A model generated the notes under the pieces. The model was not told the origin of the DNA and did not search any database. It saw only the letters and a program-made list of their open reading frames with translations. A program made the translations under genes and the position numbers. Of a stretch of DNA of 64,000 nucleotides, positions 14,345-57,676 are shown piece by piece (position 1 is the first letter of the stretch; each line of letters opens with the position of its first letter). The DNA is from Escherichia coli (GTDB lineage Bacteria > Pseudomonadota > Gammaproteobacteria > Enterobacterales > Enterobacteriaceae): the NCBI RefSeq assembly GCF_003334355.1, contig NZ_QOWP01000012.1; one strand, 5' to 3'.

Positions 14345-14442
14345 GGGTTTTGTAGGTCTGATAAGACGCGCCAGCGTCGCATCAGACATCAGCACGGTGC
14401 CTGTGCCGGATGCGGCGGGGACGCCTTATCCGGCCTACATAG
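14345..14442. repeat. REP/BIME cluster (two inverted REP units) downstream of artM
   Basis: GTAGGTCTGATAAGACGCGCCAGCGTCGCATCAGAC and GCCGGATGCGGCGGGGACGCCTTATCCGGCCTAC match the enterobacterial REP consensus. Confidence 0.85.
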
Positions 14443-14463
14443 TGCATAAATTCTTATAATGAA

Positions 14464-14497
14464 GACGGACAACCCACTAAGTTGTCCGTCTTTTTTA
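14464..14497 (+). terminator. Intrinsic terminator (10-bp stem GACGGACAAC/GTTGTCCGTC then T6)
   Basis: Perfect stem followed by TTTTTTATTT; lies between the artM BIME and the artJ promoter. Confidence 0.7.
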
Positions 14498-14526
14498 TTT
14501 CATTTAAATTATTTAATCATGTTTAT

Positions 14527-14540
14527 TGCATATAAATTCA
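14527..14540 (+). promoter_or_regulatory. ARG box TGCATATAAATTCA upstream of artJ
   Basis: 9 of 10 match to the TGAAT-N4-ATTCA core, about 75 bp upstream of the artJ ATG; artJ is a known strongly ArgR-repressed gene. Confidence 0.45.
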
Positions 14541-14611
14541 CTTGATGGCATTGTTATCCCATGCCGCAGACACGGCCAAAAATCATAAGATTGACAGACG
14601 GGAGTTCCATC

Positions 14612-15343
14612 ATGAAAAAGTTAGTTCTTGCCGCTTTACTTGCTTCCTTTACTTTCGGTGCTTCTGCCGCAGAGAAAATCAATTTTGGCGTTTCAGCCAC
14701 CTATCCACCCTTTGAATCTATAGGTGCTAATAATGAGATTGTCGGCTTTGATATCGATCTGGCAAAAGCCTTGTGCAAACAAATGCAGGCAGAATGTACT
14801 TTTACTAATCACGCGTTCGACAGCCTGATCCCGTCCCTGAAATTCAGAAAATATGACGCCGTAATCTCCGGTATGGATATCACCCCGGAGCGTAGCAAAC
14901 AGGTATCGTTTACCACGCCCTACTATGAAAACTCAGCCGTCGTGATTGCCAAAAAAGATACCTACAAAACGTTTGCCGATCTGAAAGGCAAACGTATTGG
15001 GATGGAAAACGGTACTACGCACCAGAAATATATTCAGGATCAGCACCCGGAAGTGAAAACTGTCTCTTATGACAGTTATCAGAATGCCTTTATCGATCTG
15101 AAAAATGGTCGTATTGATGGGGTATTTGGTGACACAGCGGTGGTAAACGAATGGCTGAAAACCAATCCACAACTTGGTGTTGCTACTGAGAAAGTGACCG
15201 ATCCGCAATATTTTGGCACCGGCCTGGGCATCGCTGTACGTCCGGATAACAAAGCCCTGCTGGAAAAACTGAATAACGCGCTGGCAGCAATTAAAGCTGA
15301 CGGTACTTATCAAAAAATCAGTGACCAGTGGTTCCCACAGTAA
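14612..15343 (+). CDS. artJ: Arginine-binding periplasmic protein ArtJ
   Basis: 243 aa from the ATG at 14612 (MKKLVLAALLASFTFGASA signal peptide). Confidence 0.93.
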   Translation: MKKLVLAALLASFTFGASAAEKINFGVSATYPPFESIGANNEIVGFDIDLAKALCKQMQAECTFTNHAFDSLIPSLKFRKYDAVISGMDITPERSKQVSFTTPYYENSAVVIAKKDTYKTFADLKGKRIGMENGTTHQKYIQDQHPEVKTVSYDSYQNAFIDLKNGRIDGVFGDTAVVNEWLKTNPQLGVATEKVTDPQYFGTGLGIAVRPDNKALLEKLNNALAAIKADGTYQKISDQWFPQ

Positions 15344-15391
15344 GATTCAGAAAGCCGCAACCGCGGCTTGAGACTGATGACAAAGGTAAAA

Positions 15392-15492
<101 letters not shown>

Positions 15493-15521
15493 TAAACAAC
15501 GCGCACTTTGTCAGCAATCTG

Positions 15522-15546
15522 AAGCCGCACATGCGGCTTTTTTATT
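15522..15546 (+). terminator. Intrinsic terminator for artJ (AAGCCGCA-ca-TGCGGCTT then T-run), overlapping the rlmC stop
   Basis: GC-rich hairpin followed by TTTTTTATT. Confidence 0.6.
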
Positions 15547-16669
15547 GCTTCACCAGCAGCGTCAGCACTTCATAGTGCGCGGTATGCGGGAACATATCGA
15601 AAAGCTGCACCCGTTCAATACGAAACCCAGGCAGTTCGCGGATATCTTTCGCCATAGTTTGGGCGTTACAGCTGGAGTAGATGATAAAACGCGGTGCCAT
15701 CGTTGAGAGATAATCACACAGCGGTTTACCAATGCCGCGGCGCGGCGGGTTAACCAGCACCAGCTCCGGCACATCCCCCTGAGCGGTGGCAAACTGAGTG
15801 GAGTCCAGCGCCTGAAATTGCAAACGCGTTAAGCCCAGTTCAGCGGCTGACTGCTTTGCACAGGCAATGGCCTCTGATGCAATTTCGATCCCGGTTAACT
15901 GCATGTCAGGCGTCGCGCAGTGTAAACCAAAGCCCCCCACACCGCAGAACAGATCCCACATATGTTTAACCGGCAGCTGTCGTACCCAGTCGCGCGCGGT
16001 GGCGTACAACTGGCTGGCGACCGCCGGATTAGTCTGGAAGAAACTTTGCGGACGGATCCACAGCGGTACGTCATTAAAACGCTCCGCCAGTGCCTGTTGT
16101 TCGGTCAGGTAGATCTCCGTCTCCCCTTCCATAATCGCCATATGTACCGGCTGAATATTGACGGTAATAACTTTCAGCTGCGGTAGTTGTTCGTGTAACC
16201 ACGGCAGCGCCTTACGCAGTTGCGCCAGCTTGGTATCAGAACGCAGTACAAAGCGCAGCATCATGCCGCCATCACTCTGGCTTTCAGTCAGCAGAATGTA
16301 TTTCAGTTCGCCACGCTTACGCGCCACGTTATAAGGCGTTAGCCCCGCTCGGGCGATAAACGGTTTTAGCGCCGCAAAAACGGGCGCAAATGAGGCAGGA
16401 TAAAGCGGGCAGTCACAAAGGTCTTCCGGTGTGCCGTCGCGATGCAGCATACCGAGCAGTGGTTTTTCAACGCTACCACTCACCACCATTTTGGCTTTAT
16501 TACGAAACCCTTGTTCCGGGCCTGACACCGGCGCGCACCATTCCACGACCGGAAAATCGGCGAGCAGATTTTTAAGATCGGCGGTTTTAGCGGAGAGTTG
16601 CTCTGGAATCGGCTGCGTTATCCACTGACAGGAACGACAGCGACCCGCGTCGTAAAGTGCGCACTGCAT
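15542..16669 (-). CDS. rlmC: 23S rRNA (uracil747-C5)-methyltransferase RlmC (RumB)
   Basis: 375 aa; N-terminal Cys cluster [14 protein letters not shown]; SAM methyltransferase fold. Confidence 0.92.
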
Positions 16670-16709
16670 ACATTGACCTTCACATCATCAGGGCCGACGA
16701 TTATACACA

Positions 16710-17198
16710 TTATTGCAACTGGAAGAACCGCCGACTGGTCGAGGGAACGAACAGCAGCATCAGGATGAGCATATCCGGCAGCTTCTGCAGCATCAGGCTA
16801 TGGAAGATTTCACGTTTTGATTCACCGGGAATGCTGAACAGCTCCGGATAACCATACCCCAGCGAAGCCGCCCACAAGTAACTTGCGGCGGTGATTTGTG
16901 TCAGCAGATATAGCCAGCGCGCCCAGCGACGCCCTTTCACCAGTGAAAACGCACACCAGATCTCGATAAAAACCAGCACCAGACTGCTTAAAAAGACCAG
17001 CGTTAAGCTCCAGGTTTGTACGCTGCGATGAATGAACTCGCCAATACCGCGCACGCCCAGCGTATTGAAAATCATCAGCACGTCGAGGCCACGGATCATA
17101 ATAATGGCGAGCGCCGCTACCTGCACCAGCGCAGGCACATTCAGGCGAGCATGAGATGAAGATGTTTTCTTAAAAAATCCCAACGTTTCGTCTTCCAT
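16710..17198 (-). CDS. ybjO: Uncharacterised inner membrane protein YbjO
   Basis: 162 aa; several hydrophobic segments. Confidence 0.85.
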   Translation of the reverse strand: MEDETLGFFKKTSSSHARLNVPALVQVAALAIIMIRGLDVLMIFNTLGVRGIGEFIHRSVQTWSLTLVFLSSLVLVFIEIWCAFSLVKGRRWARWLYLLTQITAASYLWAASLGYGYPELFSIPGESKREIFHSLMLQKLPDMLILMLLFVPSTSRRFFQLQ

Positions 17199-17257
17199 GA
17201 AAACAATGCCGCGGCATGCGCGGCATTATGTAGCCAGGTTGGCAAATTTTAGTGTCT

Positions 17258-18103
17258 TCAGCCACGTCTTGCACGCTGGATATCGCGTATCCGCTGTTTT
17301 TCTGCGCGAGCCATCAGATACCAGGCGATAAATCCGACAATTCCGACCGCACCGAGAATTAACGTTGCAAGGGCGTTGATTTCCGGATTCACCCCCATCC
17401 GCACGCTGGAAAAGACCAGCATCGGTAACGTGGTGGCTCCCGGCCCAGAAACAAAGCTGGCGATCACCAGATCATCAAGCGACAAAGTAAAAGCCAGTAA
17501 CCAGCCAGAAATGATCGCGGGCATGATCATCGGTAGCGTAATGACGAAAAATACTTTCAGCGGCGTCGCACCGAGATCCATCGCTGCTTCTTCTATCGAG
17601 CGATCCAGTTCCCGCAATCTTGAAGAAATAACGACCGCCACATAAGCCGTACAAAAAGTGACATGCGCCAGCCAGATGGTGAGCATACCGCGGTCCGCAG
17701 GCCAGCCAATGGCATGAGCAAGCGCGACGAATAATAACAACAGCGACAAGCCCGTGATGACATCTGGCATCACCAGCGGCGCGGTGATCATAAAGGCAAA
17801 ACCATTTGATCCGCGAAACCTGCCAAAACGCACCAGCACCACCGCTGCAATAGTCCCGAGGATCGCCGCCGCCGTTGCCGCACAGGCAGCAATTGTCAGG
17901 CTTAAACCAACCGCACTCATCATCGCGTCATCGCGCAATAACTCACCATACCAGCGCGTTGACCAGCCGGCCCACACCGTCACCAGCTTCGAGCTGTTAA
18001 ACGAATAGATAACCAGCATCAGCATTGGCGCGTAGAGAAAGGTAAAGCCCAGCAGCAAAATCACAATCCGCCAGGGCGAACGAACTACCGGTAAATTATT
18101 CAT
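17258..18103 (-). CDS. potI: Putrescine ABC transporter permease
   Basis: 281 aa from the ATG whose complement is at 18101-18103; start overlaps the potH stop. Confidence 0.92.
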   Translation of the reverse strand: MNNLPVVRSPWRIVILLLGFTFLYAPMLMLVIYSFNSSKLVTVWAGWSTRWYGELLRDDAMMSAVGLSLTIAACAATAAAILGTIAAVVLVRFGRFRGSNGFAFMITAPLVMPDVITGLSLLLLFVALAHAIGWPADRGMLTIWLAHVTFCTAYVAVVISSRLRELDRSIEEAAMDLGATPLKVFFVITLPMIMPAIISGWLLAFTLSLDDLVIASFVSGPGATTLPMLVFSSVRMGVNPEINALATLILGAVGIVGFIAWYLMARAEKQRIRDIQRARRG

Positions 18104-19053
18104 CCGTGTTCTCCCACGCTTTTTTGCTGGTGTTTGTGGAACCACATTATCGGCACAATTAGCAGCAGCAACATGATGATCGCTACCGCCGAGGCCACCG
18201 GCCAGTCGCGGTTATTGAAAAACTCTTGCCATAGCACGCGCCCGATCATGATGCTGTCCGGGCCACCGAGCAGTTCCGGGATCACAAACTCGCCCACAGC
18301 CGGGATAAACACCAGCATCGATCCGGCAATAATCCCACCTTTAGTCAGCGGCACGATCACAGTAAAGAACGTTTTCAGCGGTCGTGCACCGAGATCCAGC
18401 GCTGCTTCCACCAGCGAATAATCAATACGAATCAACGCGGTATAAATCGGCAGTACCATAAACGGCACGTAAGCGTAAACAATGCCGATATAAACGGCCA
18501 GATTGGTATGCAGAATGGTCAGCGGTTGATCGATAACCCCCAGCCACAGCAGAAAATTATTCAGCACACCGTTGTTTTTTAATATTCCCATCCAGGCGTA
18601 GACACGAATCAGAAACGAGGTCCACGACGGCAGGATCACCAGTAGTAATAAGATATTACGGGTCGAAGGCTTACTGTGCGCCACTGCCCACGCCAGCGGA
18701 TAGCCGATCAGTAAACAGCAAAATGTCGAAATCGCAGCCACCTGTAGCGACTGGAGATAAGCATCGAAATAGAGCGGATCGTCGGTCAGTTGCAGGAAAT
18801 TACCGAGATTAAGAGTGATGGACAGTTGCCCGTCAGCCCACTCCATCAGTTCGGTATAAGGCGGAATGGCGCGCGCCATCTCCGCCAGACTTATTTTAAA
18901 GACGATCAGAAATGGCAGCAGAAACAGCAAGATCAACCAGATATATGGCAACGCAATGACCAGTTTGCGCCCATGCTTCATTTGCAGCTGCGACAACCAC
19001 AGCTTAAATCCGCCCGGCGGTTTCGACTGGGCAGCAGGTTCAAGTGTATTCAT
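18100..19053 (-). CDS. potH: Putrescine ABC transporter permease
   Basis: 317 aa; polytopic permease. Confidence 0.92.
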   Translation of the reverse strand: MNTLEPAAQSKPPGGFKLWLSQLQMKHGRKLVIALPYIWLILLFLLPFLIVFKISLAEMARAIPPYTELMEWADGQLSITLNLGNFLQLTDDPLYFDAYLQSLQVAAISTFCCLLIGYPLAWAVAHSKPSTRNILLLLVILPSWTSFLIRVYAWMGILKNNGVLNNFLLWLGVIDQPLTILHTNLAVYIGIVYAYVPFMVLPIYTALIRIDYSLVEAALDLGARPLKTFFTVIVPLTKGGIIAGSMLVFIPAVGEFVIPELLGGPDSIMIGRVLWQEFFNNRDWPVASAVAIIMLLLLIVPIMWFHKHQQKSVGEHG

Positions 19054-19062
19054 CTTTGCTCC

Positions 19063-20196
19063 TTAAACCGTCAGCACCACACAGCTGTCCACTTCCCAGC
19101 ACAAACGCACTTCGTCGCCCCAGGTCGGTAACCCTTTACGATGACGATGGGCGTTTTGTAGCTGGGCGCTAATCATCTGCCCACTTTTCAGACGAACGTG
19201 ATACACCGAAAGATCGCCGAGATAGGCAATATGTATCACCTCCCCCACCGCGAAGTTACAACCATTGGCGGGCGGCTCTTCGCAAAGCATGATTTTTTCC
19301 GGGCGCAGAGCCACATGTACCGGCACGTTATCGACCACCGAGGCATCCGCGTCGACTTTCAGTGGATGCACCAGCCCCGGCGAATCAAGCACCAGGCCAT
19401 CTTCCTGACGCTCTTTGAGTACGCCTTCAAAGACGTTTACCGAGCCAATAAATTCGGCGCTATAGCGGGTAGTCGGATGCTCGTAGATCTCTTCCGGTTC
19501 GCCAATCTGGACAAATTTCCCACGATTCATAATGGCGATGCGCCCCGCCATGGTCATCGCCTCTTCCTGATCGTGAGTAACCATCACGCAGGTCACACCG
19601 ACGCGCTCCAGAATATCCACCACTTCAAGCTGCATCCGGTCACGCAATTTTTTATCCAGCGCGCCCATCGGTTCGTCGAGCAGCAGAAGTTTTGGGCGCT
19701 TGGCAAGGCTTCGGGCCAGCGCCACACGCTGTCTCTGACCGCCGGAAAGCTGATGCGGTTTGCGTTTGGCGAACTCCTGCATGTGCACCAGGCCGAGCAT
19801 CTCATTGACCCGACTGGCAATTTCCGCTTTCGGTAGTTTGTCCTGTTTCAGGCCAAAAGCGATGTTCTGTTCCACGGTCATATGCGGAAACAGCGCGTAA
19901 GACTGAAACATCATATTGATGGGGCGCAGGTAAGGCGGAACCTGTGACAAATCGACGCCATCAAGCATTATCTGTCCGGCAGAAGGTTGTTCGAAACCTG
20001 CCAGCATACGCAGCAGCGTGGACTTGCCACAGCCGGATGCGCCCAGCAGCGCGAAGATTTCACCTTTGTAGATAGTCAGGCTGACATCATCCACCGCATG
20101 TTGACCATCGTAGGATTTGGTGAGGTTGCGGATTTCTAATAGCGGCGTCAACGCCTTACGGGTTTTCGCCTGCGGGCGAGGGATAGCGTCATTCAC
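19063..20196 (-). CDS. potG: Putrescine ABC transporter ATP-binding protein
   Basis: 377 aa from a GTG start (complement of CAC at 20194-20196; longest ORF runs to 20277); Walker A GASGCGKST and signature LSGGQRQRV. Confidence 0.9.
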   Translation of the reverse strand: MNDAIPRPQAKTRKALTPLLEIRNLTKSYDGQHAVDDVSLTIYKGEIFALLGASGCGKSTLLRMLAGFEQPSAGQIMLDGVDLSQVPPYLRPINMMFQSYALFPHMTVEQNIAFGLKQDKLPKAEIASRVNEMLGLVHMQEFAKRKPHQLSGGQRQRVALARSLAKRPKLLLLDEPMGALDKKLRDRMQLEVVDILERVGVTCVMVTHDQEEAMTMAGRIAIMNRGKFVQIGEPEEIYEHPTTRYSAEFIGSVNVFEGVLKERQEDGLVLDSPGLVHPLKVDADASVVDNVPVHVALRPEKIMLCEEPPANGCNFAVGEVIHIAYLGDLSVYHVRLKSGQMISAQLQNAHRHRKGLPTWGDEVRLCWEVDSCVVLTV

Positions 20197-20290
20197 GGCT
20201 GCTCTCCGGCATTGAATGTGTGCAAGCGCACCATGATGGTGCGAATTGCCGGCGTGTGTGGTGCACCCGTCCGGCATCTACGACTGCGGA

Positions 20291-21403
20291 TTATTTTCCG
20301 CTCTTCACTTTGGTCCACGCGCGGGTGCGCACACGGTCGATTTTCGGGTCCTGCACTTTCAGAGTGAACAGCTTCGCACGGACATCCGCAGGCGGATAAA
20401 TACCCGGGTTATCACGAACTTCCGCACTCACCAGCGGCGTGGCTGCTTTATTGGCGTTAGCATAGAACACATGGTCAGAGATATGTGCCACCACATCCGG
20501 ACGCAGCAGGTAATTCAGGAACTGATAGGCTTCGTCTTTATTTTTGGCATCGGCAGGCATGGCGAATACATCAAAGAACGCCATCGCCCCTTCTTTTGGA
20601 ATCGAGAACGAGACATTCACGCCATTCTTCGCTTCCTTCGCGCGGTTTGACGCCTGCCAGACATCACCTGCCCAACCAATCGCCACGCAGATGTCACCAT
20701 TCGCCAGGTCATTAATATATTGAGATGAATGGAAATAACGAATGTTCGGGCGCAGCTTTAACAGCAGATCGGTAGCAGGTCCGGTGTAATCATCCGCTTT
20801 AGTGCTGTTGGGATCTTTGCCGAGATAATTCAGCACGGTAGCAAAAACTTCTTCTGGCGCATCGAGGAAAGAGACACCGCAGCTTTTCAGTTTTTCCAGA
20901 TTTTCAGGCTTGAGGATCAAGTCCCAGCTATCGACGGGCGCGTTTTCGCCCAGCACCGCTTTGACTTTATCGACGTTATAGCCAATCCCGGTCGTCGCCC
21001 ACATATAGGGCATAGCAAATTTATTGTCGGGATCGTGTTTGGCGACCAACTTCAGCAGTTCCGGGTCGAGATTCTTCCACTCCGGCAATTTGCTTTTATC
21101 CAGCGGCTGGAAAACTCCCGCTGTCAGCTGGCGTTCAAGAAAGCTTGCTGACGGCACCACCAGGTCAAAGCCGGTGCTCCCGGCCATTAATTTGCCTTCC
21201 AGTACTTCGTTAGAGTCGAAAACATCGTAGACGACTTTAATACCGGTTTCTTTTTCAAAGTTAGCCACCGTGTCGGGGGCGATATAATCAGACCAGTTAT
21301 AAATGTGGAGTGTTTTTTGTTCAGCCGCGAGCGTGCCGACAGAGACGGCCATCAGAGCACCCGCAACCAGACCCGAAAGCCATTTTTTATTTAAGGCGGT
21401 CAT
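20291..21403 (-). CDS. potF: Putrescine-binding periplasmic protein
   Basis: 370 aa from the ATG (MTALNKKWLSGLVAGALMA signal peptide); longest ORF runs to 21553. Confidence 0.92.
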   Translation of the reverse strand: MTALNKKWLSGLVAGALMAVSVGTLAAEQKTLHIYNWSDYIAPDTVANFEKETGIKVVYDVFDSNEVLEGKLMAGSTGFDLVVPSASFLERQLTAGVFQPLDKSKLPEWKNLDPELLKLVAKHDPDNKFAMPYMWATTGIGYNVDKVKAVLGENAPVDSWDLILKPENLEKLKSCGVSFLDAPEEVFATVLNYLGKDPNSTKADDYTGPATDLLLKLRPNIRYFHSSQYINDLANGDICVAIGWAGDVWQASNRAKEAKNGVNVSFSIPKEGAMAFFDVFAMPADAKNKDEAYQFLNYLLRPDVVAHISDHVFYANANKAATPLVSAEVRDNPGIYPPADVRAKLFTLKVQDPKIDRVRTRAWTKVKSGK

Positions 21404-21753
21404 ATCTCTTTCCTTCTGAAAGTTCGTTAACAAACGAACAAAAGTTGTCACACTGAAAGATATGCAATAAACGTGCATATTTTTTATCGGCGCGGTGTAA
21501 GAAAAGAGAACTCTCTCCCGGCCAGCACTGCTCGCTATATAAAAGCATCGCAAGAATAACTTTAGCCAGGGTTTGAGACTATAGCTCGGATTAAAAAACG
21601 GTATTTAACAAATTTTTATGCGTATTTGCTCTATGTGATAAAGCCAAATCGACACAAGAGAAGTGAAATAATCTTTAAGAAAAGGTTAAAAACAGCAGAT
21701 AATTTTGCAGCGCGCAGCCACTGCACCAGCGACTGCGTGCTCGAAAGGAGTTA

Positions 21754-22230
21754 TCAGTGGAGGAAATAGTTTTCGGTAACGTTGTTTTGCCCTTCATCGT
21801 CAGTCGGTAACAGCAGTTGATGGGCATTAGCTTCAAGAATGACCATCGAAATCTGCTCTTCGCTCTGACGCACGAACCATGCAAACTGCTCATAGGTTAC
21901 GCCCTGCATAACGGATAAAGACTGGCAAACCACCAGCTTTGGCAGATTATCATCCTGCATATCAAGAAATGCTTTCACGGTCAGCGAACTGGCATTGATG
22001 GCAGATAAATCCGCCGCCAGCGGCAATACGGCTGAAGGTCGGACTTCCGCCATGGCAGAAAACAGGATCGTGTTATCGATCAGATCGATTTTGGCATCAA
22101 AGACACCGTCGAAATTCTGCATATGGGGCAGATGCAGAGCCTGACAGTTATCACATTCAAAAAAACTCATCCCCAGGTCATCGAGCCATTGACGCAGCGT
22201 ATCCAGACCAGGAACGACCAGCGATGTCAT
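21754..22230 (-). CDS. ybjN: YbjN, putative sensory-transduction regulator family
   Basis: 158 aa from the ATG (MTSLVVPGLDTLRQWL); last gene of the ybjC-nfsA-rimK-ybjN cluster. Confidence 0.88.
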   Translation of the reverse strand: MTSLVVPGLDTLRQWLDDLGMSFFECDNCQALHLPHMQNFDGVFDAKIDLIDNTILFSAMAEVRPSAVLPLAADLSAINASSLTVKAFLDMQDDNLPKLVVCQSLSVMQGVTYEQFAWFVRQSEEQISMVILEANAHQLLLPTDDEGQNNVTENYFLH

Positions 22231-22317
22231 AATTTTGTACAACCTCTTTCGATAAAAAGACCGGCACAGCTTACGCAAAAAGCGCAGGCAAAACCATGAT
22301 CAGTAATGTGATTGCGA

Positions 22318-23220: not shown

Positions 23221-23280
23221 CCTGCACCTCTCTGTCAGACCTGGTCAAAAGCCCGCGTATCATACATCGACGTGGCGGTT

Positions 23281-24691: not shown

Positions 24692-24701
24692 TCGTCTGAC
24701 A

Positions 24702-27053: not shown

Positions 27054-27165
27054 AACTGAAGTTGCCCTGAAAATGAAATTTTTTTGCACAACCGCAGAAC
27101 TTTTCCGCAGGGCATCAGTCTTAATTAGTGCCACTGCTTTTCTTTGATGTCCCCATTTTGTGGAG

Positions 27166-27209
27166 CCCATCAACCCCGCCATTTCGGTTCAAGGTTGATG
27201 GGTTTTTTG
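27166..27209 (+). terminator. Intrinsic terminator downstream of ybjL
   Basis: CCCATCAACC...GGTTGATGGG 10-bp stem followed by TTTTTTG. Confidence 0.55.
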
Positions 27210-27227
27210 TTATCTAAAATTTATCTA

Positions 27228-45776: not shown

Positions 45777-45795
45777 TTTATTCTCCGCCTGAATG

Positions 45796-48619: not shown

Positions 48620-48822
48620 AGTATTCGTCCATTAAGGGTGGCTCGCCACTTTTGCTATAAATATCAGAATTTTTATGAATTACTCATTCAATTTTTGAAT
48701 ATAGAAAGATGGATATGGCATGTAAAGGCAGGAGCCAACGCTACGCCCGAGGTGGCATACAGTCTGTGGCGTTTTTCTGACATAATAGGCAAATTCGATT
48801 TTGCCTCCGCAGGAGTGTTTTC

Positions 48823-50058: not shown

Positions 50059-50807
50059 TGGCGGAACTCAGCGATCAGGAGATGCTGCGCTACAACCGGC
50101 AAATCATTCTGCGCGGTTTTGATTTTGACGGTCAGGAGGCGCTAAAAGATTCTCGTGTGCTGGTAGTCGGCCTCGGTGGACTCGGCTGCGCAGCTTCGCA
50201 GTATCTGGCAAGCGCCGGTGTCGGCAACCTGACGCTGCTCGACTTCGACTCGGTTTCGCTCTCGAATCTGCAACGCCAGACGCTGCACAGTGATGCCACG
50301 GTCGGGCAACCGAAGGTGGAATCCGCCCGTGACGCCCTGGCGCGGATCAATCCACATATCGCGATTACGCCAGTCAATGCACTGCTGGATGACGCAGAAC
50401 TTGCAGCATTGATTGCTGAACACGATCTGGTGCTCGACTGTACGGATAACGTTGCGGTACGTAATCAACTGAACGCAGGCTGTTTTGCCGCGAAGGTGCC
50501 GCTGGTTTCCGGCGCGGCAATTCGTATGGAAGGGCAAATCACGGTCTTCACTTATCAGGACGGCGAACCGTGCTATCGCTGCCTTAGCCGTTTGTTTGGC
50601 GAGAACGCATTAACCTGCGTAGAAGCAGGCGTGATGGCACCGTTGATCGGCGTAATTGGTTCGTTGCAGGCAATGGAAGCGATCAAACTGCTGGCAGGTT
50701 ATGGCAAACCGGCCAGCGGGAAAATCGTCATGTACGATGCGATGACCTGTCAGTTTCGCGAAATGAAACTGATGCGCAATCCGGGGTGTGAGGTGTGCGG
50801 GCAGTAA
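50058..50807 (+). CDS. moeB: Molybdopterin-synthase adenylyltransferase (ThiF/MoeB family)
   Basis: 249 aa; GLGGLGC nucleotide motif and CxxC pairs; start overlaps the moeA stop (TAATG). Confidence 0.93.
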   Translation: MAELSDQEMLRYNRQIILRGFDFDGQEALKDSRVLVVGLGGLGCAASQYLASAGVGNLTLLDFDSVSLSNLQRQTLHSDATVGQPKVESARDALARINPHIAITPVNALLDDAELAALIAEHDLVLDCTDNVAVRNQLNAGCFAAKVPLVSGAAIRMEGQITVFTYQDGEPCYRCLSRLFGENALTCVEAGVMAPLIGVIGSLQAMEAIKLLAGYGKPASGKIVMYDAMTCQFREMKLMRNPGCEVCGQ

Positions 50808-50817
50808 TTGCCACCTC

Positions 50818-50900
50818 CAGGCCTGATAAGACGCGACAAGCGTCGCATCAGGCATTTGCTCCAGACGCCAGATGCGGCGTGAACGCCTTATCTGGCCTAC
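50818..50900. repeat. REP/BIME cluster between convergent moeB and fsaA
   Basis: GCCTGATAAGACGCGACAAGCGTCGCATCAGGC and CAGATGCGGCGTGAACGCCTTATCTGGCCTAC. Confidence 0.85.
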
Positions 50901-50985
50901 GGTTCGGGCACAGATTTCCAAGCGCGGCAGGCATCGGTGCACTCCGCCACGTCATCAGCAATTTATGAGGATGCAGAACGTCCGG

Positions 50986-51648
50986 TTAAATCGACGTTCT
51001 GCCAAACGCTCCCTGCCAGTCCTGCTCAAACTTCGCCACAGCGGCTTCCACCGCCGGATAGCTAATCATCTGTTGTGCCACATCCAGTGGCAGAGTAATT
51101 GATTCACATCCTGCCAGTAAGCAGTCCAGCGCCTGACGCGGGGTTTTGAAACTCGCTGCCAGCACTTTCGCCTGCGGCGCATGCATTTTCAATAACTGGT
51201 GTAAGTCGGTCACAGTCTGAATGCCGCTACCGCCCTGAGCATCAATACGATTAACGTAAGGCGCAACATATTCCGCACCTGCCAGCGCCGACAGCAGCCC
51301 TTGTGCTGCGCCATATACCGCGGTTCCCAGCGTTGGAATCCCTTCCGCTTTTAACATCTTAATAGCTGCCAGCCCCTCGGCGGTCACCGGAACTTTCACC
51401 ACGATATCCGCAATAATAGAACGCAATTTACGTGCGTCATTCACCATCCCTTCAGCAGTGGTAGCCATTACCTGGGCAAACAGACGCCCCTGACCGCCCA
51501 TCGCTTCATGAAGTTGCGGAAGCACAACATCCAGCGGTTTTTTACCCGCGGCGATAATGCTTGGGTTAGTGGTCACACCCGCCAGCGGAAAAATACGTGA
51601 CAGCGCCTTCACCGCAACAACGTCTGAAGTATCCAGATACAGTTCCAT
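50986..51648 (-). CDS. fsaA: Fructose-6-phosphate aldolase 1
   Basis: 220 aa from the ATG ([30 protein letters not shown]); transaldolase-like fold. Confidence 0.92.
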
Positions 51649-51778
51649 AACCATCCTCAAAATGTACTTTTTGTCTGAATGTAGACTATCACGGGAAAAC
51701 TCTCTGAACAGTTGACGCACATCAATCTAACTTTCATTCGAAAGTATTTTAATGCTTGAACGAAATAGAGAGGCAACT

Positions 51779-52678
51779 ATGATTTTCAATATTCAGCGCT
51801 ACTCGACCCATGATGGCCCCGGTATCCGCACGGTCGTATTTCTTAAAGGCTGTTCGCTGGGCTGCCGCTGGTGTCAGAACCCGGAAAGCCGCGCCCGCAC
51901 GCAGGATCTGCTGTATGACGCACGACTGTGTCTGGAAGGCTGCGAGCTGTGCGCTAAGGCCGCGCCGGAAGTGATTGAGCGCGCGCTGAATGGTTTGCTT
52001 ATTCATCGGGAAAAGTTAACCCCGGAGCATCTGACGGCGTTAACCGACTGCTGTCCGACACAGGCATTAACCGTGTGTGGTGAAGTGAAAAGCGTTGAGG
52101 AGATCATGACGACCGTTCTGCGCGATAAACCGTTTTACGATCGCAGCGGCGGCGGTTTAACGCTTTCGGGTGGTGAGCCCTTTATGCAGCCGGAAATGGC
52201 GATGGCGCTACTGCAAGCCAGCCACGAGGCAGGCATTCATACTGCGGTAGAAACCTGTCTGCATGTGCCGTGGAAATATATCGCCCCTTCTCTGCCCTAT
52301 ATCGATCTGTTTCTTGCCGATTTAAAACACGTTGCCGACGCGCCGTTTAAACAGTGGACCGACGGTAACGCCGCCAGAGTGCTGGATAACCTGAAAAAAC
52401 TCGCCGCAGCGGGCAAAAAAATCATTATCCGCGTGCCGCTGATTCAGGGCTTTAATGCCGACGAAACCTCTGTAAAAGCCATTACCGATTTTGCCGCCGA
52501 CGAGCTGCACGTTGGCGAAATTCATTTTCTGCCCTACCACACGCTGGGCATCAACAAATATCACTTACTTAATCTGCCCTATGACGCCCCGGAAAAACCG
52601 CTTGATGCGCCAGAACTGCTCGACTTTGCCCAGCAGTATGCCTGCCAGAAAGGGTTAACCGCGACCTTACGAGGATAA
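51779..52678 (+). CDS. ybiY: Glycyl-radical-enzyme activating enzyme (radical SAM)
   Basis: 299 aa from the ATG at 51779; CxxxCxxC radical-SAM motif ([10 protein letters not shown]) and a ferredoxin-like Cys-rich insert. Confidence 0.9.
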
Positions 52679-52683
52679 CAACC

Positions 52684-55116
52684 ATGACCACACTGAAACT
52701 GGACACGCTCAGCGACCGCATTAAAGCGCACAAAAATGCGCTGGTGCATATTGTGAAACCGCCAGTCTGTACCGAGCGCGCGCAGCACTATACCGAGATG
52801 TATCAACAACATCTCGATAAGCCGATCCCGGTACGTCGCGCGCTGGCACTGGCGCATCACCTGGCGAATCGCACCATCTGGATCAAACACGATGAGTTGA
52901 TCATTGGCAACCAGGCAAGCGAAGTTCGCGCCGCGCCGATCTTCCCGGAATATACTGTCTCGTGGATCGAAAAAGAGATTGATGATCTGGCAGATCGTCC
53001 CGGTGCTGGCTTTGCGGTGAGCGAAGAGAACAAACGCGTTCTGCATGAAGTGTGCCCGTGGTGGCGCGGTCAGACCGTACAGGATCGCTGCTACGGCATG
53101 TTTACCGATGAGCAAAAAGGTCTGCTGGCGACCGGAATCATTAAAGCGGAAGGCAATATGACCTCCGGCGATGCGCACCTGGCGGTGAATTTCCCGCTGC
53201 TGCTGGAAAAAGGGCTTGATGGTCTGCGCGAGAAAGTAGCGGAACGTCGCTCGCGCATCAACCTGACGGTGCTGGAAGATTTACACGGTGAGCAATTCCT
53301 GAAAGCGATTGATATCGTGCTGGTGGCAGTCAGTGAACACATTGAACGTTTCGCTGCCCTGGCGCGTGAAATGGCCGCGACCGAAACCCGCGAAAGCCGT
53401 CGCGATGAACTGCTGGCGATGGCAGAAAACTGCGATCTTATCGCCCACCAGCCGCCGCAGACTTTCTGGCAGGCGCTGCAACTGTGTTACTTCATCCAGT
53501 TGATTTTGCAGATCGAATCTAACGGTCACTCAGTATCGTTTGGTCGTATGGACCAGTATCTCTACCCGTACTATCGCCGCGACGTTGAACTCAACCAGAC
53601 GCTGGATCGCGAACACGCCATCGAGATGCTGCATAGCTGCTGGCTGAAACTGCTGGAAGTGAACAAGATCCGCTCCGGCTCACACTCAAAAGCCTCTGCG
53701 GGAAGTCCGCTGTATCAGAACGTCACTATTGGCGGGCAAAATCTGGTTGATGGTCAACCAATGGACGCGGTGAATCCACTCTCTTACGCGATCCTCGAAT
53801 CCTGCGGTCGCCTGCGTTCCACTCAGCCTAACCTCAGCGTGCGTTACCATGCAGGAATGAGCAACGATTTCCTCGACGCCTGCGTACAGGTGATCCGTTG
53901 CGGCTTCGGGATGCCGGCGTTCAACAACGACGAAATCGTGATCCCGGAATTTATTAAACTCGGTATTGAACCGCAGGACGCTTATGACTACGCAGCGATT
54001 GGTTGTATAGAAACCGCCGTCGGTGGCAAATGGGGCTATCGCTGTACCGGCATGAGCTTTATCAACTTCGCCCGCGTGATGCTGGCGGCGCTGGAAGGCG
54101 GGCATGATGCCACCAGCGGCAAAGTGTTCCTGCCACAAGAAAAAGCGTTGTCGGCAGGTAACTTCAACAACTTCGATGAAGTGATGGACGCGTGGGATAC
54201 GCAAATCCGTTACTACACCCGCAAATCAATCGAAATCGAATATGTCGTCGACACCATGCTGGAAGAGAACGTGCACGATATTCTCTGCTCGGCGCTGGTG
54301 GATGACTGTATTGAGCGAGCGAAAAGTATCAAGCAAGGCGGCGCGAAATATGACTGGGTTTCTGGCCTGCAGGTCGGCATTGCCAACCTCGGCAACAGCC
54401 TGGCGGCAGTGAAGAAACTGGTGTTTGAACAAGGTGCGATTGGTCAGCAACAGCTTGCTGCCGCACTGGCAGATGACTTCGACGGCCTGACTCACGAGCA
54501 GCTGCGTCAGCGGCTGATTAACGGTGCGCCGAAGTACGGCAACGACGATGATACTGTCGATACGCTGCTGGCTCGCGCTTATCAGACCTATATCGACGAA
54601 CTGAAACAGTACCATAATCCGCGCTACGGTCGTGGTCCGGTTGGCGGCAACTATTACGCGGGTACGTCATCAATCTCCGCTAACGTACCGTTTGGCGCGC
54701 AGACTATGGCAACACCGGACGGGCGTAAAGCCCACACCCCGCTGGCAGAAGGCGCAAGCCCGGCCTCCGGTACTGACCATCTTGGCCCTACTGCGGTCAT
54801 TGGCTCAGTGGGTAAACTGCCTACGGCAGCGATTCTCGGCGGCGTGTTGCTCAACCAGAAACTGAATCCGGCAACGCTGGAGAACGAATCTGACAAGCAG
54901 AAACTGATGATCCTGCTGCGTACCTTCTTTGAAGTGCATAAAGGCTGGCATATTCAGTACAACATCGTTTCCCGCGAAACGCTGCTGGATGCGAAAAAAC
55001 ATCCCGATCAGTATCGCGATCTGGTAGTGCGTGTCGCGGGCTATTCCGCGTTCTTCACCGCGCTCTCTCCAGACGCTCAGGACGATATCATCGCCCGTAC
55101 TGAACATATGCTGTAA
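52684..55116 (+). CDS. ybiW: Pyruvate-formate-lyase-like glycyl radical enzyme, substrate unassigned
   Basis: 810 aa; C-terminal glycyl-radical signature VVRVAGYSAFF; starts 6 nt after ybiY. Confidence 0.9.
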   Translation: MTTLKLDTLSDRIKAHKNALVHIVKPPVCTERAQHYTEMYQQHLDKPIPVRRALALAHHLANRTIWIKHDELIIGNQASEVRAAPIFPEYTVSWIEKEIDDLADRPGAGFAVSEENKRVLHEVCPWWRGQTVQDRCYGMFTDEQKGLLATGIIKAEGNMTSGDAHLAVNFPLLLEKGLDGLREKVAERRSRINLTVLEDLHGEQFLKAIDIVLVAVSEHIERFAALAREMAATETRESRRDELLAMAENCDLIAHQPPQTFWQALQLCYFIQLILQIESNGHSVSFGRMDQYLYPYYRRDVELNQTLDREHAIEMLHSCWLKLLEVNKIRSGSHSKASAGSPLYQNVTIGGQNLVDGQPMDAVNPLSYAILESCGRLRSTQPNLSVRYHAGMSNDFLDACVQVIRCGFGMPAFNNDEIVIPEFIKLGIEPQDAYDYAAIGCIETAVGGKWGYRCTGMSFINFARVMLAALEGGHDATSGKVFLPQEKALSAGNFNNFDEVMDAWDTQIRYYTRKSIEIEYVVDTMLEENVHDILCSALVDDCIERAKSIKQGGAKYDWVSGLQVGIANLGNSLAAVKKLVFEQGAIGQQQLAAALADDFDGLTHEQLRQRLINGAPKYGNDDDTVDTLLARAYQTYIDELKQYHNPRYGRGPVGGNYYAGTSSISANVPFGAQTMATPDGRKAHTPLAEGASPASGTDHLGPTAVIGSVGKLPTAAILGGVLLNQKLNPATLENESDKQKLMILLRTFFEVHKGWHIQYNIVSRETLLDAKKHPDQYRDLVVRVAGYSAFFTALSPDAQDDIIARTEHML

Positions 55117-55261
55117 TCTCCTCGGCCCGGCGGCGTCGTCGCCGGGCTAAATCATTCACATCATCAATTTCATCCTTACTTTCATTCGAAATATAATTTG
55201 TGCTCTGCGTCACATTGTTATTACACTGTTACGGTTTCATTTTCGAGCCAGGAGCACACCT

Positions 55262-56077
55262 ATGAGCGTAAAAGTTATCGTCACAGACATGGACGGTACT
55301 TTTCTTAACGACGCCAAAACGTACAACCAACCACGTTTTATGGCGCAATATCAGGAACTGAAAAAGCGCGGCATTAAGTTCGTTGTTGCCAGCGGTAATC
55401 AGTATTACCAGCTTATTTCATTCTTTCCTGAGCTAAAGGATGAGATCTCTTTTGTCGCGGAAAACGGCGCACTGGTTTACGAACATGGCAAGCAGTTGTT
55501 CCACGGCGAACTAACCCGACATGAATCGCGGATTGTTATTGGCGAGTTGCTAAAAGATAAGCAACTCAATTTTGTCGCCTGCGGTCTGCAAAGTGCATAT
55601 GTCAGCGAAAATGCCCCCGAAGCATTTGTCGCACTGATGGCAAAACACTACCATCGCCTGAAACCTGTAAAAGATTATCAGGAGATTGACGACGTACTGT
55701 TCAAGTTTTCGCTCAACCTGCCGGATGAACAAATCCCGTTAGTGATCGACAAACTGCACGTAGCGCTCGATGGCATTATGAAACCCGTTACCAGTGGTTT
55801 TGGCTTTATCGACCTGATTATTCCCGGTCTACATAAAGCAAACGGTATTTCGCGGTTACTGAAACGCTGGGATCTGTCACCGCAAAATGTGGTAGCGATT
55901 GGCGACAGCGGTAACGATGCGGAGATGCTGAAAATGGCGCGTTATTCCTTTGCGATGGGCAATGCTGCGGAAAACATTAAACAAATCGCCCGTTACGCTA
56001 CCGATGATAATAATCATGAAGGCGCGCTGAATGTGATTCAGGCGGTGCTGGATAACACATCCCCTTTTAACAGCTGA
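55262..56077 (+). CDS. ybiV: HAD-superfamily Cof-like sugar phosphatase
   Basis: 271 aa; [14 protein letters not shown]; strongly similar to ybjI at 29056. Confidence 0.9.
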
Positions 56078-56228
56078 CCTCTCTACCGGAGCCGTGCGCT
56101 CCGGTTTTCCCTTCTTTTTACATCCTGTACATCACATCAAATCATTAAACTTGCATTAACTTATTTATAACTTATATTGTCACATGCAAATCAGAATGGT
56201 TTCGAATGAAAGTTAATGAGAGGTGGTT

Positions 56229-57494
56229 ATGGCTTCTACTTTTACCAGCGACACATTGCCTGCCGATCACAAAGCAGCTATCCGTCAGATGAAGCACGCG
56301 CTGCGGGCGCAGCTTGGCGACGTCCAGCAGATCTTTAATCAGCTAAGCGATGACATTGCCACGCGAGTGGCTGAAATCAACGCACTCAAAGCACAGGGCG
56401 ATGCCGTCTGGCCGGTGCTGTCTTATGCCGATATCAAAGCAGGTCATGTTACTGCAGAGCAGCGCGAACAGATTAAACGTCGCGGTTGTGCGGTGATAAA
56501 AGGCCATTTCCCCCGCGAACAAGCGCTAGGCTGGGATCAGTCGATGCTGGACTATCTGGACCGCAACCGCTTTGACGAGGTCTACAAAGGCCCCGGCGAT
56601 AATTTCTTCGGGACGCTCAGCGCTTCACGTCCCGAGATTTACCCCATCTACTGGTCGCAGGCGCAAATGCAGGCCCGCCAGAGTGAAGAAATGGCGAATG
56701 CGCAGTCGTTTCTCAATCGTCTGTGGACATTTGAAAGTGATGGAAAGCAATGGTTTAACCCGGATGTGAGCGTCATCTACCCTGACCGTATCCGCCGCCG
56801 TCCGCCCGGAACGACCTCCAAAGGTCTTGGAGCGCATACCGACTCCGGGGCACTGGAACGCTGGCTGCTTCCAGCGTATCAGCGCGTTTTCGCCAACGTC
56901 TTTAATGGCAATCTGGCGCAATATGATCCCTGGCATGCGGCACATCGTACGGAAGTTGAAGAGTACACGGTGGACAACACCACCAAATGTTCCGTGTTTC
57001 GGACATTCCAGGGCTGGACAGCGCTCTCTGATATGCTGCCTGGTCAGGGGCTGCTGCACGTCGTGCCCATTCCTGAAGCTATGGCGTACGTACTGTTACG
57101 TCCGCTGCTTGATGATGTGCCGGAGGATGAACTGTGCGGCGTAGCGCCCGGAAGAGTATTGCCGGTATCAGAGCAATGGCATCCACTGTTGATTGAGGCG
57201 TTAACCAGCATTCCAAAACTCGAAGCCGGAGACTCCGTCTGGTGGCACTGCGACGTCATCCATTCCGTTGCCCCCGTTGAAAATCAACAAGGTTGGGGCA
57301 ACGTGATGTACATTCCTGCGGCACCGATGTGCGAGAAAAATCTTGCCTACGCGCACAAGGTGAAGGCCGCACTGGAAAAAGGCGCATCGCCGGGCGACTT
57401 CCCGCGCGAGGACTATGAAACAAACTGGGAAGGACGCTTTACGCTTGCCGACCTCAACATTCACGGTAAGCGAGCGTTGGGCATGGATGTTTGA
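56229..57494 (+). CDS. ybiU: Uncharacterised DUF1479-family protein
   Basis: 421 aa from the ATG at 56229 (longest ORF begins at a GTG at 56223). Confidence 0.85.
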   Translation: MASTFTSDTLPADHKAAIRQMKHALRAQLGDVQQIFNQLSDDIATRVAEINALKAQGDAVWPVLSYADIKAGHVTAEQREQIKRRGCAVIKGHFPREQALGWDQSMLDYLDRNRFDEVYKGPGDNFFGTLSASRPEIYPIYWSQAQMQARQSEEMANAQSFLNRLWTFESDGKQWFNPDVSVIYPDRIRRRPPGTTSKGLGAHTDSGALERWLLPAYQRVFANVFNGNLAQYDPWHAAHRTEVEEYTVDNTTKCSVFRTFQGWTALSDMLPGQGLLHVVPIPEAMAYVLLRPLLDDVPEDELCGVAPGRVLPVSEQWHPLLIEALTSIPKLEAGDSVWWHCDVIHSVAPVENQQGWGNVMYIPAAPMCEKNLAYAHKVKAALEKGASPGDFPREDYETNWEGRFTLADLNIHGKRALGMDV

Positions 57495-57572
57495 GAATTA
57501 ATGGAAGTGAATTGATGTGGGATTAAGAAAATCGATTCGACGTTACTCAGATTGCTGACAAATGCGCTTTGT

Positions 57573-57676
57573 TAATGCCTGATGCGGCGTTAACGCCTTA
57601 TCCGGCCTACAAAGTCCTGCAGATTCAATATATTGCAGGTACTGCGTAGGCCTGATAAGCGTAGCGCATCAGGCTA
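57573..57676. repeat. REP/BIME cluster between ybiU and ybiT
   Basis: GCCTGATGCGGCGTTAACGCCTTATCCGGCCTAC and GTAGGCCTGATAAGCGTAGCGCATCAGGC, with an internal CCTGCA...TGCAGG hairpin. Confidence 0.85.

Follow-up and report, generated by a model that had tools for sequence, protein, structure and literature searches.

The four loci described here (A to D) are best explained as known REP/BIME elements, A and C being minimal BIME-2-type units and B and D BIME-1 elements (probability about 0.93). The finding is an ordinary one: these are textbook elements, with catalogues of E. coli REP/BIME sequences going back to the 1980s and 1990s. The window analysed is a 64-kb stretch of the E. coli chromosome from a non-K-12 strain, and it corresponds to K-12 ∼851-915 kb read as the reverse complement. 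The original prediction had placed REP units at 14345-14442, 15392-15492, 50818-50900 and 57573-57676, and these positions were borne out to within a few bases.

Four inverted pairs of REP units

A search of the 64-kb window with tail and head motifs and a profile revealed eight REP units. They form four pairs, and all four are inverted, in agreement with the orientation that had been predicted. A REP pattern with a fixed 5-nt loop caught a single unit because loop lengths vary between units, and the tail/head motifs and the profile were used in its place. With a profile built from the eight units, no ninth copy was found in the 64 kb. The next-best match (positions 54573-54590, inside ybiW, E=0.045) lacked a palindromic partner and was rejected.

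The units were aligned with the Y, Z1 and Z2 reference sequences taken from PMC11208160, and 31/35 to 35/35 positions were identical. All eight are imperfect palindromes of 30-40 nt that match Y, Z1 or Z2; a failure to match REP families, named beforehand as the outcome that would count against the prediction, was not observed. A GTAG motif is present at the 5′ stem foot in seven of the eight units, the exception being the Z2 unit of locus C, which has CCAG. In 100 shuffled sequences, no match to a degenerate REP pattern was found, and the predicted RNA folds at the REP loci had z-scores of -2.4 to -9.6. No repeat_region features are listed in the corresponding range of K-12 (NC_000913.3), and at three of the four loci the copies are identical to those of K-12.

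These sequences are highly repeated. A 2-kb query that carries two BIMEs matched a median of at least 40 places per genome, and all of the 5,426 complete E. coli genomes contain many REP/BIME copies. An exact Y-REP pattern was found in at least 120 stretches across taxa, which gives a minimum for its taxonomic range. We consider it practically certain that loci A to D each hold a copy of the classical enterobacterial REP/BIME repeat. All eight units are extragenic, lying between annotated genes (open reading frames and K-12 annotation), and all four loci are located past stop codons, downstream of genes as had been proposed. Locus A separates co-directional genes, and loci B, C and D separate convergent ones.

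BIME-2-type pairs and BIME-1 composites

Locus A lies between artM and artJ. Its Z2-type REP (14352-14387, GTAG on the + strand; 34/36 identities to the Z2 reference) begins 31 nt past the artM stop codon, and is followed by a short, S-type linker of 16 nt (14388-14403, by direct reading) and a Y-type REP (14404-14438, GTAG on the - strand; 32/35 identities to Y). An Rfam naRNA4 match extends over 14355-14435. Downstream, on the + strand, the terminator scan and a minimum free energy fold revealed an intrinsic-terminator-like hairpin with a T run (14461-14493), which therefore places the BIME inside the artPIQM 3′UTR.

Locus C, between moeB and fsaA, has the same arrangement. Its Z2-type REP (50817-50853, + strand; 34/36 identities, pattern match and fold), the unit with CCAG in place of GTAG, has a stem that begins 13 nt downstream of the moeB stop codon (50805-50807). 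A 13-nt linker (50854-50866, by direct reading) joins it to a Y-type REP (50867-50900, - strand; 31/35 identities; naRNA4 match 50820-50897), in which CCAGAT/ATCTGG replaces CCGGAT/ATCCGG, a compensatory change of the stem. GTAG is needed for TnpA-REP binding in vitro (PMC3333891), and the Z2 of locus C is probably immobile because it has lost this motif.

The short linker is the defining trait of the BIME-2 arrangement (PMC3333891), and both loci consist of Z2, an S linker (16 or 13 nt) and Y. Tandem copies, which are usual for BIME-2, are absent at A and C, with one pair each in the window. We conclude that A and C are minimal BIME-2-type units, i.e., single Z2-S-Y pairs.

Locus B is located between artJ and rlmC. 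The complete composite (GAGA, arm, Z1, L, Y and arm; ∼153 nt) spans 15370-15522 on the + strand. It contains a Z1-type REP (15394-15422, - strand; 29/30 identities to Z1), a 35-nt L linker (15423-15457; ES036 match 15415-15457) with the core CAATGTATTGAAT, and a Y-type REP (15458-15491, + strand) that is identical to the Y reference at 35/35 positions over 15457-15492. The core of this linker is common to 37 of 46 sampled L linkers.

Locus D, between ybiU and ybiT, carries the complete composite in the inverse orientation (57547-57694, - strand; 172 bits with nhmmer), identical in MG1655. Its Y-type REP (57577-57610, - strand; 33/35 identities) is followed by a 35-nt L linker (ATTCAATATATTG, 57611-57645; recognised by its core motif and an ES036 match at 57611-57653) and a Z1-type REP (57646-57674, + strand; 30/30 identities). 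The conserved repeat is wider than the coordinates first given, extending over 15374-15522 at B and 57547-57694 at D, and the two composites are inverted copies, 87% identical over 149 nt. With nhmmer, 45 near-full-length copies of the BIME-1 composite were detected. BIME-1 is characterised by a single Z1 and a single Y, inverted relative to each other and separated by a long L linker, and by its occurrence as a single copy (PMC3333891); these features were found at both loci. Hence, B and D belong to BIME-1, also called RIP or RIB elements, in which conserved outer arms enclose Z1-L-Y.

The original prediction had also regarded the REPs as potential insertion hot spots. The sequence supports this only for B and D, where a motif search found the exact IS621 target ATCAGGCCTAC (target sequence from PMC11208160) within Z1, at 15412-15422 in B and on the - strand at 57646-57656 in D.

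Strain variation and the hairpin repeats around BIME-1

The comparison of presence and absence across E. coli that had been proposed was carried out on 5,426 complete genomes, and the alleles proved variable at all four loci. Of these genomes, 64% (A), 31% (B), 21% (C) and 42% (D) carry the window-type allele, which is thus missing from 36-79% of them, depending on the locus. In the short allele of locus A found in Nissle, GTEN_23 and NRZ14408, Z2 is absent and Y is the sole remaining REP. At locus B, the whole element is present or absent between strains. In MG1655, CFT073 and CEC15, nested deletions have left the first half of Z2 alone at locus C. In O157:H7, Y and the L linker of locus D are deleted between GCCTGAT short direct repeats inside the inverted pair. 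In an O157-like strain, the intergenic region of locus B has been replaced in its entirety by a 3.5-kb island, an observation relevant to the hot-spot claim.

The REPs had been taken to confirm a core-chromosome context. This claim stood in part: outside enterobacterial chromosomes, REP/BIME DNA is very rare, with 9/50,697 phage records and 92/72,556 plasmid records against 5,426/5,426 E. coli genomes. It was overstated, however, in that the REP loci are among the least core sequences of this region, and in that ybiU, which adjoins locus D, is absent from CFT073. This absence and a P2-like prophage break the collinearity of the region in CFT073. Because these elements are so unstable between strains, whether a stretch of DNA carries a REP says little about whether it is "core"; the core context is demonstrated by the synteny of the flanking genes, and not by the REPs themselves. 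The four loci offer a compact illustration of REP/BIME instability, and REP gain and loss are a plausible source of strain-specific 3′UTR differences. An example is the Z2 hairpin 13 nt past the moeB stop codon, present in 21% of genomes and within the 15-nt range in which hairpins are reported, as cited in a preprint, to affect translation.

REP/BIMEs are non-coding, non-autonomous palindromic DNA that accumulates just past stop codons, and their spread is thought to be due to a single-copy REP-associated tyrosine transposase, TnpA-REP (yafM), encoded outside the window. Mobilisation by TnpA-REP has been demonstrated in vitro only (PMC3333891).

The flanks of BIME-1 suggest how such a unit might enter a genome. 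At locus B, a terminator hairpin is present in two copies. The right copy (15523-15539; terminator scan 15521-15540, and allele alignments) is followed by a T run, and the stop codon of rlmC is 2 nt away; the left copy (AAGCCGCAACCGCGGCTT, 15352-15369) is a direct repeat of 15522/15523-15539. Empty alleles of locus B have a single copy of the hairpin. BIME-1 is a discrete ∼153-nt unit with imperfect terminal inverted repeats (CTGATGACAAAG / CTTTGTCAGCA), and at locus B and two other loci with empty and filled alleles it stands between direct duplicates (17-21 nt) of the local terminator hairpin. A flank repeat scoring at least 10 was found at 20 of 44 sampled BIME-1 copies, compared with 4 of 400 mismatched controls; its length (17-28 nt) varies with the local hairpin, and one of the duplicated hairpins carries a compensatory stem substitution. 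Isolated BIME-2-type pairs had no comparable hairpin repeat in their flanks, and the high flank-repeat scores seen around BIME-2-type pairs come from tandem-array periodicity and were set aside. From sequence comparison, the repeats around BIME-1 look like a target-site duplication, i.e., an insertion footprint.

We therefore tentatively propose, at well below even odds, that BIME-1 is a transposon-like unit that integrates specifically at the feet of terminator hairpins and duplicates the whole hairpin, with the length of the duplication set by the target stem-loop. The anatomy points to arrival of the ∼153-nt unit at the foot of an intrinsic terminator that was already in place; duplication of the terminator hairpin would leave both convergent genes still ending at a hairpin with its own T run. 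Against this model, the hairpin that adjoins the locus D composite (CCGTCACCCCGACAGTATCGGGGTGACGG, 57698-57726; from reading, folding and the listing of flanks) is found on one side only, with no duplicate. The empty alleles at locus B could also be excisions between repeats, since a divergent Escherichia lineage already has BIME-1 at this locus with no left hairpin copy, and insertion polarity could run either way. If the model were true, it would: i) indicate cleavage at both feet of an extruded or single-stranded hairpin, ii) be the first case in which an insertion footprint of a REP-family element is clearly seen in vivo, and iii) explain the presence of BIME-1 at convergent 3′ ends without disrupted termination. 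No mention of the hairpin duplication was found in the literature searched, which did not include key papers of the 1990s; if undescribed, the duplication would make the mode of REP insertion in vivo directly testable.

Possible functions and comparison with known systems

The suggestion that these REPs are gyrase or IHF sites agrees with roles published for the classes, once it is divided between them. In BIME-1, IHF sites are frequent within the L linker (PMC3333891), and gyrase cleavage sites are enriched in BIME-2, mostly in Y units (PMC6379681). By analogy with these families, the L linkers of B and D may act on DNA as IHF sites and the Y units of A and C as preferred gyrase sites. Published BIME-2 gyrase sites are mostly in tandem arrays; A and C are single pairs. 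The L cores match the IHF consensus YAANNNNTTGATW at 8/9 specified positions, a level of near-match that is common by chance. The exact IHF consensus WATCAANNNNTTR has five matches in the window, none of them in the L linkers, and no enrichment. No IHF, gyrase or expression data specific to these loci were found in the literature, and the GeF-seq and Topo-seq supplements do not contain these gene names.

The proposed role as mRNA stabiliser likewise agrees with what is published for the class: REPs have a dual terminator/stabiliser role, and can stabilise the upstream mRNA and attenuate read-through (preprint 10.64898/2026.03.23.713779). Judging from the families, the transcribed hairpins would act locally on the upstream gene, slowing 3′-to-5′ mRNA decay and causing partial, largely Rho-dependent termination. 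At locus A, such a protective effect may be redundant with the intrinsic terminator hairpin 3′ of the BIME. We put at about even the chance that any one of the four loci has a measurable local effect on expression, because a large proportion of strains do without each element.

The same dispensability is the basis for the strongest alternative, a substantial minority possibility in our judgement, in which the elements would be selfish or near-neutral DNA that the host tolerates and that serves no function for it at any of the four loci; they would persist by landing past stop codons and, for BIME-1, also by regenerating a terminator on each side. The loss of window-type alleles from 36-79% of the genomes argues against a strong selected role for each locus, several independent deletions have left half-REPs or single REPs, and the hairpin duplicate at locus B leaves artJ and rlmC each with a hairpin and a T run. 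In addition, the effect of REPs on half-life has a large variance and is not uniform (preprint 10.64898/2026.03.23.713779). The reported stabilisation and read-through attenuation point in the opposite direction, as do the compensatory stem substitutions in the Y unit of locus C and in a duplicated hairpin, and the artM-artJ spacer, which with its BIME is ∼98% identical to that of a lineage in which the identity of artJ falls to ∼89%.

It is far less probable that the loci are small-RNA genes, naRNA4-like at A and C and ES036/CssrF-like at B and D, which act in trans, e.g., with HU in nucleoid organisation. The Rfam matches exceed the gathering scores: naRNA4 (RF02564; gathering score 59.5) gave 75.5 bits at A and 79.6 bits at C, and ES036 (RF02751; gathering score 37.6) gave 42.2 and 41.6 bits on the L linkers of B and D. 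Furthermore, naRNA4 was described from REP325 (PMC4550694). Both Rfam families were built on REP/BIME sequence, so that a score is expected for every REP pair and every L linker. The matches therefore mean REP/BIME sequence and not an independent small-RNA gene, and this reading of them was rejected as circular. No promoter-like site was found adjoining A or B, and REP325 and naRNAs are reported to act locally in cis, with no measurable nucleoid compaction (preprint 10.64898/2026.03.23.713779).

The units are GC-rich hairpins at gene ends, but that they are chance palindromes or plain intrinsic terminators mistaken for REPs has a negligible probability and is refuted by the alignments to the REP references, by the lack of REP pattern matches in shuffles and by the terminator scan (14200-15700, covering A and B only), which called 0/4 REP units and only separate flanking hairpins (14461-14493 and 15521-15540). 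At C and D, which lie outside the scanned range, no T run was read directly 3′ of a REP unit.

We conclude that the four loci are REP/BIME elements, and they can be compared with known systems on this basis. As in other BIME-1 (RIP or RIB) elements, the L linker of B and D is 35 nt long and contains CAAT(A/G)TATTGAAT, the core typical of the family, and the outer arms are conserved; both elements are single copies located where convergent genes have their 3′ ends, and strains either have or lack them as a whole. The elements themselves do not differ from this family, and what the literature searched lacks is the duplication of the flanking hairpin. A and C resemble BIME-2 (REP325/naRNA4) in their head-to-head Z2 and Y units, their 13-16-nt linker, their naRNA4 match, and a length polymorphism between strains rather than clean presence or absence; they differ from it in having a single pair each, where BIME-2 is usually in tandem.

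BIME-1 resembles bacterial MITEs (ERIC, Correia and others) in that its ends are defined, its terminal inverted repeats are imperfect, it folds into a long hairpin and, at 20 of the 44 sampled copies, it has direct repeats in its flanks. MITEs make a short duplication of fixed length, whereas the repeat around BIME-1 has no fixed length and equals the local hairpin. We know of no DDE transposase partner for BIME-1. A review describes REPs as devoid of MITE signatures (PMC3184786). Transposition of the IS200/IS605 type is not known to make target duplications, whereas BIME-1 is flanked by repeats of 17-28 nt. Finally, as with REPINs and their RAYT transposases (a Pseudomonas model; yafM in E. 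coli), the inverted REP doublet is the repeated unit, and it is non-autonomous and reliant on a single-copy Y1 transposase encoded elsewhere; the E. coli REPs beside the RAYT are of the Y and Z2 types and not of Z1.

REP units at four gene ends

All four places at which the original prediction had located REP clusters contain REP units. Direct reading, with units placed by tail and head motifs, revealed eight units in four inverted pairs, all past stop codons as predicted, and the predicted coordinates were off by a few bases at most. When the loci were aligned to references for the three E. coli REP types (methods of PMC11208160), all eight units fitted Y, Z1 or Z2. Locus A, between artM and artJ, has a Z2 unit at 14352-14387 (34/36 identical to the reference) and a Y unit at 14404-14438 (32/35). 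Locus C, between the convergent moeB and fsaA genes, has a Z2 unit at 50817-50853 (34/36, with GTAG changed to CCAG) and a Y unit at 50867-50900 (31/35, with a compensatory stem change). At locus B (convergent artJ and rlmC) we found Z1 at 15394-15422 (29/30) and Y at 15458-15491 (35/35), and at locus D (convergent ybiU and ybiT) Y at 57577-57610 (33/35) and Z1 at 57646-57674 (30/30). A profile built from these eight units and three published references detected no other copy across the 64-kb window, and a degenerate REP pattern had no match in 100 shuffles; the predicted list of four loci is therefore complete. The next profile match (54573-54590, E = 0.045) lies inside ybiW, lacks a palindromic partner, and was rejected as a ninth REP.

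BIME-1 consists of Z1 and Y joined by a long (L) linker, frequently with an IHF site, and occurs as single copies; BIME-2 consists of Z2 and Y with a short (S) linker and is usually tandem (PMC3333891). By unit class and linker length, loci B and D (35-nt linkers) are assigned to BIME-1, and loci A and C, with linkers of 16 and 13 nt, to BIME-2-type pairs, although each of the latter holds a single pair. Rfam agrees: loci A and C match naRNA4, and the L linkers at B and D match ES036. Since both families are built on REP/BIME sequence, these matches name the repeat and are no proof of a separate gene for an RNA. A single 149-nt unit, with conserved arms beyond its REPs, occurs in opposite orientations at B (15374-15522) and D (57547-57694), the two copies being 87% identical. 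At both of these loci the Z1 unit contains the natural target of IS621, ATCAGGCCTAC, as an exact match; a motif search did not find it in the Z2 units of A and C. The REP identification was thus correct, and the elements are already known and ordinary.

Two other features of the window were recorded. A 151-nt direct repeat (75% identity; 12282-12432 in artI and 14695-14845 in artJ) joins two paralogous binding-protein genes and is not a mobile repeat. The RybB small RNA lies at 27133-27211 on the plus strand (105.3 bits in Rfam); at this position CFT073 has a P2-like prophage with integrase, cI, portal and terminase, directly adjacent to rcdA.

Gene context and possible function

Locus A lies 31 nt past the stop codon of artM, with a terminator-like hairpin (14461-14493) downstream of it, and hence inside the artPIQM 3′UTR. 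Only at C is the gap between a stop codon and a REP stem no more than 15 nt (13 nt, past moeB), a distance at which an effect on translation has been reported, as cited in a preprint. The predicted 3′UTR folds are far stabler than those of shuffled sequence (z-scores -2.4 to -9.6). The L linkers of B and D read CAAT(A/G)TATTGAAT, the majority form (37/46 sampled L linkers), and by motif comparison their core differs at a single position from YAANNNNTTGATW, the IHF consensus.

The published literature and supplements searched yielded no IHF, gyrase or transcript data at the level of these loci, so that their function rests on that of their families. Gyrase cleavage is enriched in BIME-2, mainly at Y units (PMC6379681). 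The model element REP325 acts locally, as a partial Rho-dependent terminator and stabiliser of upstream mRNA, and is no nucleoid organiser, and REP effects genome-wide are context-dependent (2026 preprint 10.64898/2026.03.23.713779). We put the odds that any one of the four loci would have a measurable effect at about even, since a large fraction of strains lacks any given element. The same absence favours a serious rival explanation, namely that the elements are tolerated selfish DNA.

Allelic variation and the core-chromosome claim

The window is the reverse complement of MG1655 (NC_000913.3) from about 851,187 to 915,186, with 99.15% identity over 76-50838 and 99.90% over 50939-64000; its source strain is not K-12. 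Positions 1-75 are unrelated to MG1655 and collinearity begins at about base 76, upstream of lysO, at a strain-specific breakpoint clipped by the window edge. Over 76-64000 the differences are strongly patchy, from 0 to 40 per kb (0 at 14-15 kb and 52-63 kb, up to 40 at 20 kb and 30 at 50 kb), which is the usual recombination mosaic. Locus C, with ~100 bases extra relative to K-12, falls in a highly divergent patch. Strain 504239 (NZ_CP025859.1) is identical to the window over short queries (291-621 nt) around B, C and D.

A 2-kb query around A and B, covering artM, artJ and rlmC, matched all 5,426 complete E. coli genomes. With ~290-nt queries and 80% coverage required, the strain comparison proposed with the original prediction found window-type alleles in just 21-64% of these 5,426 genomes: 3,448 (64%) at A, 1,702 (31%) at B, 1,144 (21%) at C and 2,292 (42%) at D. 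The remaining allele types were read from alignments of representative genomes. At A, the Y unit alone is left in Nissle, GTEN_23 and NRZ14408, from which 66 nt are missing; since a divergent Escherichia lineage (GTDB representative SCPM-O-B-8794, ~90% identical) has the full pair, this short allele is probably a deletion. The artM-artJ spacer including the BIME (14322-14612, compared with locus L135 of that lineage) is ~98% identical and the artJ coding sequence only ~89%, which reflects either strong constraint on the artJ promoter region or recombination import. At C, 103 nt are missing in MG1655, CFT073 and CEC15 and 91 nt in GPEC1258; all four retain the first half of Z2, which identifies these alleles as deletions.

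Locus B occurs in four states among the aligned genomes: the K-12/window form; a form without the left 24 nt (O104:H4, M11, the divergent lineage); an empty state, in which the intergenic region measures 28 nt (Nissle, GTEN_23, NRZ14408); and a sulfatase/PTS island of 3.5 kb in place of the whole spacer (O157-like strain ERL06-2442). This island (comparison loci L006, 2594-2645, and L011, 93-3602) encodes a sulfatase, PTS IIB and PTS IIC, and both BIME-1 and the terminator hairpin are lost. At D, O157:H7 lacks 73 nt, with one Z1 left and the junction in a direct repeat, GCCTGAT, common to both inverted units; CEC15 has Z1-L-Z1, and the Z1 unit of E500002 no longer has GTAG. In CFT073 the BIME is kept but the neighbouring ybiU (56223-57494 in the window) is absent, ybiV being followed directly by BIME-1 and ybiT (L004, 42175-42375); an accessory gene therefore borders D. 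These patterns match the published one (PMC1187871, citing Bachellier 1997), in which BIME-2 varies in length and BIME-1 is either wholly present or wholly absent.

The REPs had also been taken as a sign of core chromosome and against an acquired island. A combined BIME-2 and BIME-1 query matched 9 of 50,697 phage records, for the most part host DNA picked up by transduction, fragments or wrongly labelled contigs. Among 72,556 plasmid records it matched 92, several of which have the size of a chromosome. Given this scarcity, REPs do mark native enterobacterial chromosome, but as a marker of conserved sequence the claim was overstated, since they are among the most variable bases of the window. 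Among the matches listed, the exact Y-REP pattern occurred in species-representative genomes of Citrobacter, E. albertii, Pseudocitrobacter and Escherichia, and in two tiny non-enterobacterial contigs (Desulfosporosinus sp. OT, L069, 262 nt; a Bacteroidales MAG, L070, 3.1 kb), probably through assembly contamination. E. albertii has tandem arrays of four BIME-1 plus hairpin units at ~177-nt spacing (L067, 1243-1919), and Pseudocitrobacter faecalis six Y REPs at ~100-nt spacing (L092, 842-1377). In Citrobacter youngae a REP pair with a 14-nt linker lies directly past the rlmC stop codon, beside a different partner gene (L107, 3918-4000), which suggests that REPs came to occupy this gene end independently.

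Terminator hairpins flanking BIME-1

At locus B, BIME-1 has a copy of one hairpin on either side, the left copy (AAGCCGCAACCGCGGCTT) at 15352-15369 and the right copy (AGCCGCACATGCGGCTT) at 15523-15539. A T run follows the right copy alone, and empty alleles have one copy. The window and loci among the Y-REP matches listed, a sample drawn from a handful of genomes picked by exact Y-REP match, supplied 45 copies of the 149-nt unit at nearly full length, and we compared the two 40-nt flanks of the 44 copies with long enough flanks. A flanking direct repeat scored at least 10 in 20/44 copies, against 4 of 400 mismatched left/right control pairs, and 27/44 exceeded the control 95th percentile. The repeat is locus-specific and mostly a GC-rich stem-loop, and T's often follow the right copy. 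Since the two copies usually share their loop sequence, the duplication is direct and not inverted. A strong hairpin was present in at least one flank at 32 of 38 distinct loci and in both at 16 (shuffled flanks, about 5%); locus D has one on one side only. Duplicated terminator hairpins of 17-28 nt were seen at 15352-15539 in the window and at comparison loci L132 (600-860), L118 (3040-3290), L136, L137 and L138. The flank comparison found no such repeats at isolated BIME-2-type pairs; high scores at other BIME-2-type pairs were due to tandem arrays.

Two further empty/filled pairs confirm the pattern of locus B. The prohibitin-tkt site is filled in 1,214 E. coli genomes, and empty strain E06 has exactly one AGGGCCGCTTTCGCGGCCCTT. 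The yfcC-yfcD site is filled in the divergent lineage alone: the filled query reached 80% coverage in no E. coli genome, every sampled E. coli match fell short by ~166 nt, and 18KM2445, the one match retrieved, has exactly one AGAGCCGCAATTGCGGCTCTT. A conserved T(G/A)GAGA-type junction follows the left hairpin copy and is absent from empty sites, so that the unit is GAGA plus the 149 nt.

The simplest reading of these alignments is that BIME-1 integrated at the feet of a terminator hairpin and that the whole hairpin was duplicated upon integration. As a consequence seen at B, artJ and rlmC each still reach a hairpin and their own T run, though only after crossing the element. The polarity could be the opposite, empty alleles having arisen by excision between the flanking repeats; the divergent lineage, which has BIME-1 at B without the left 24 nt, would fit this. 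The hairpin duplication may be the sole part of this analysis worth further work, and might already stand in papers of the 1990s. REPs lack MITE signatures (PMC3184786), and published work has not established how they insert in vivo. IS200/IS605 elements are reported to make no larger target duplications, whereas about half of the sampled BIME-1 copies are flanked by direct repeats.
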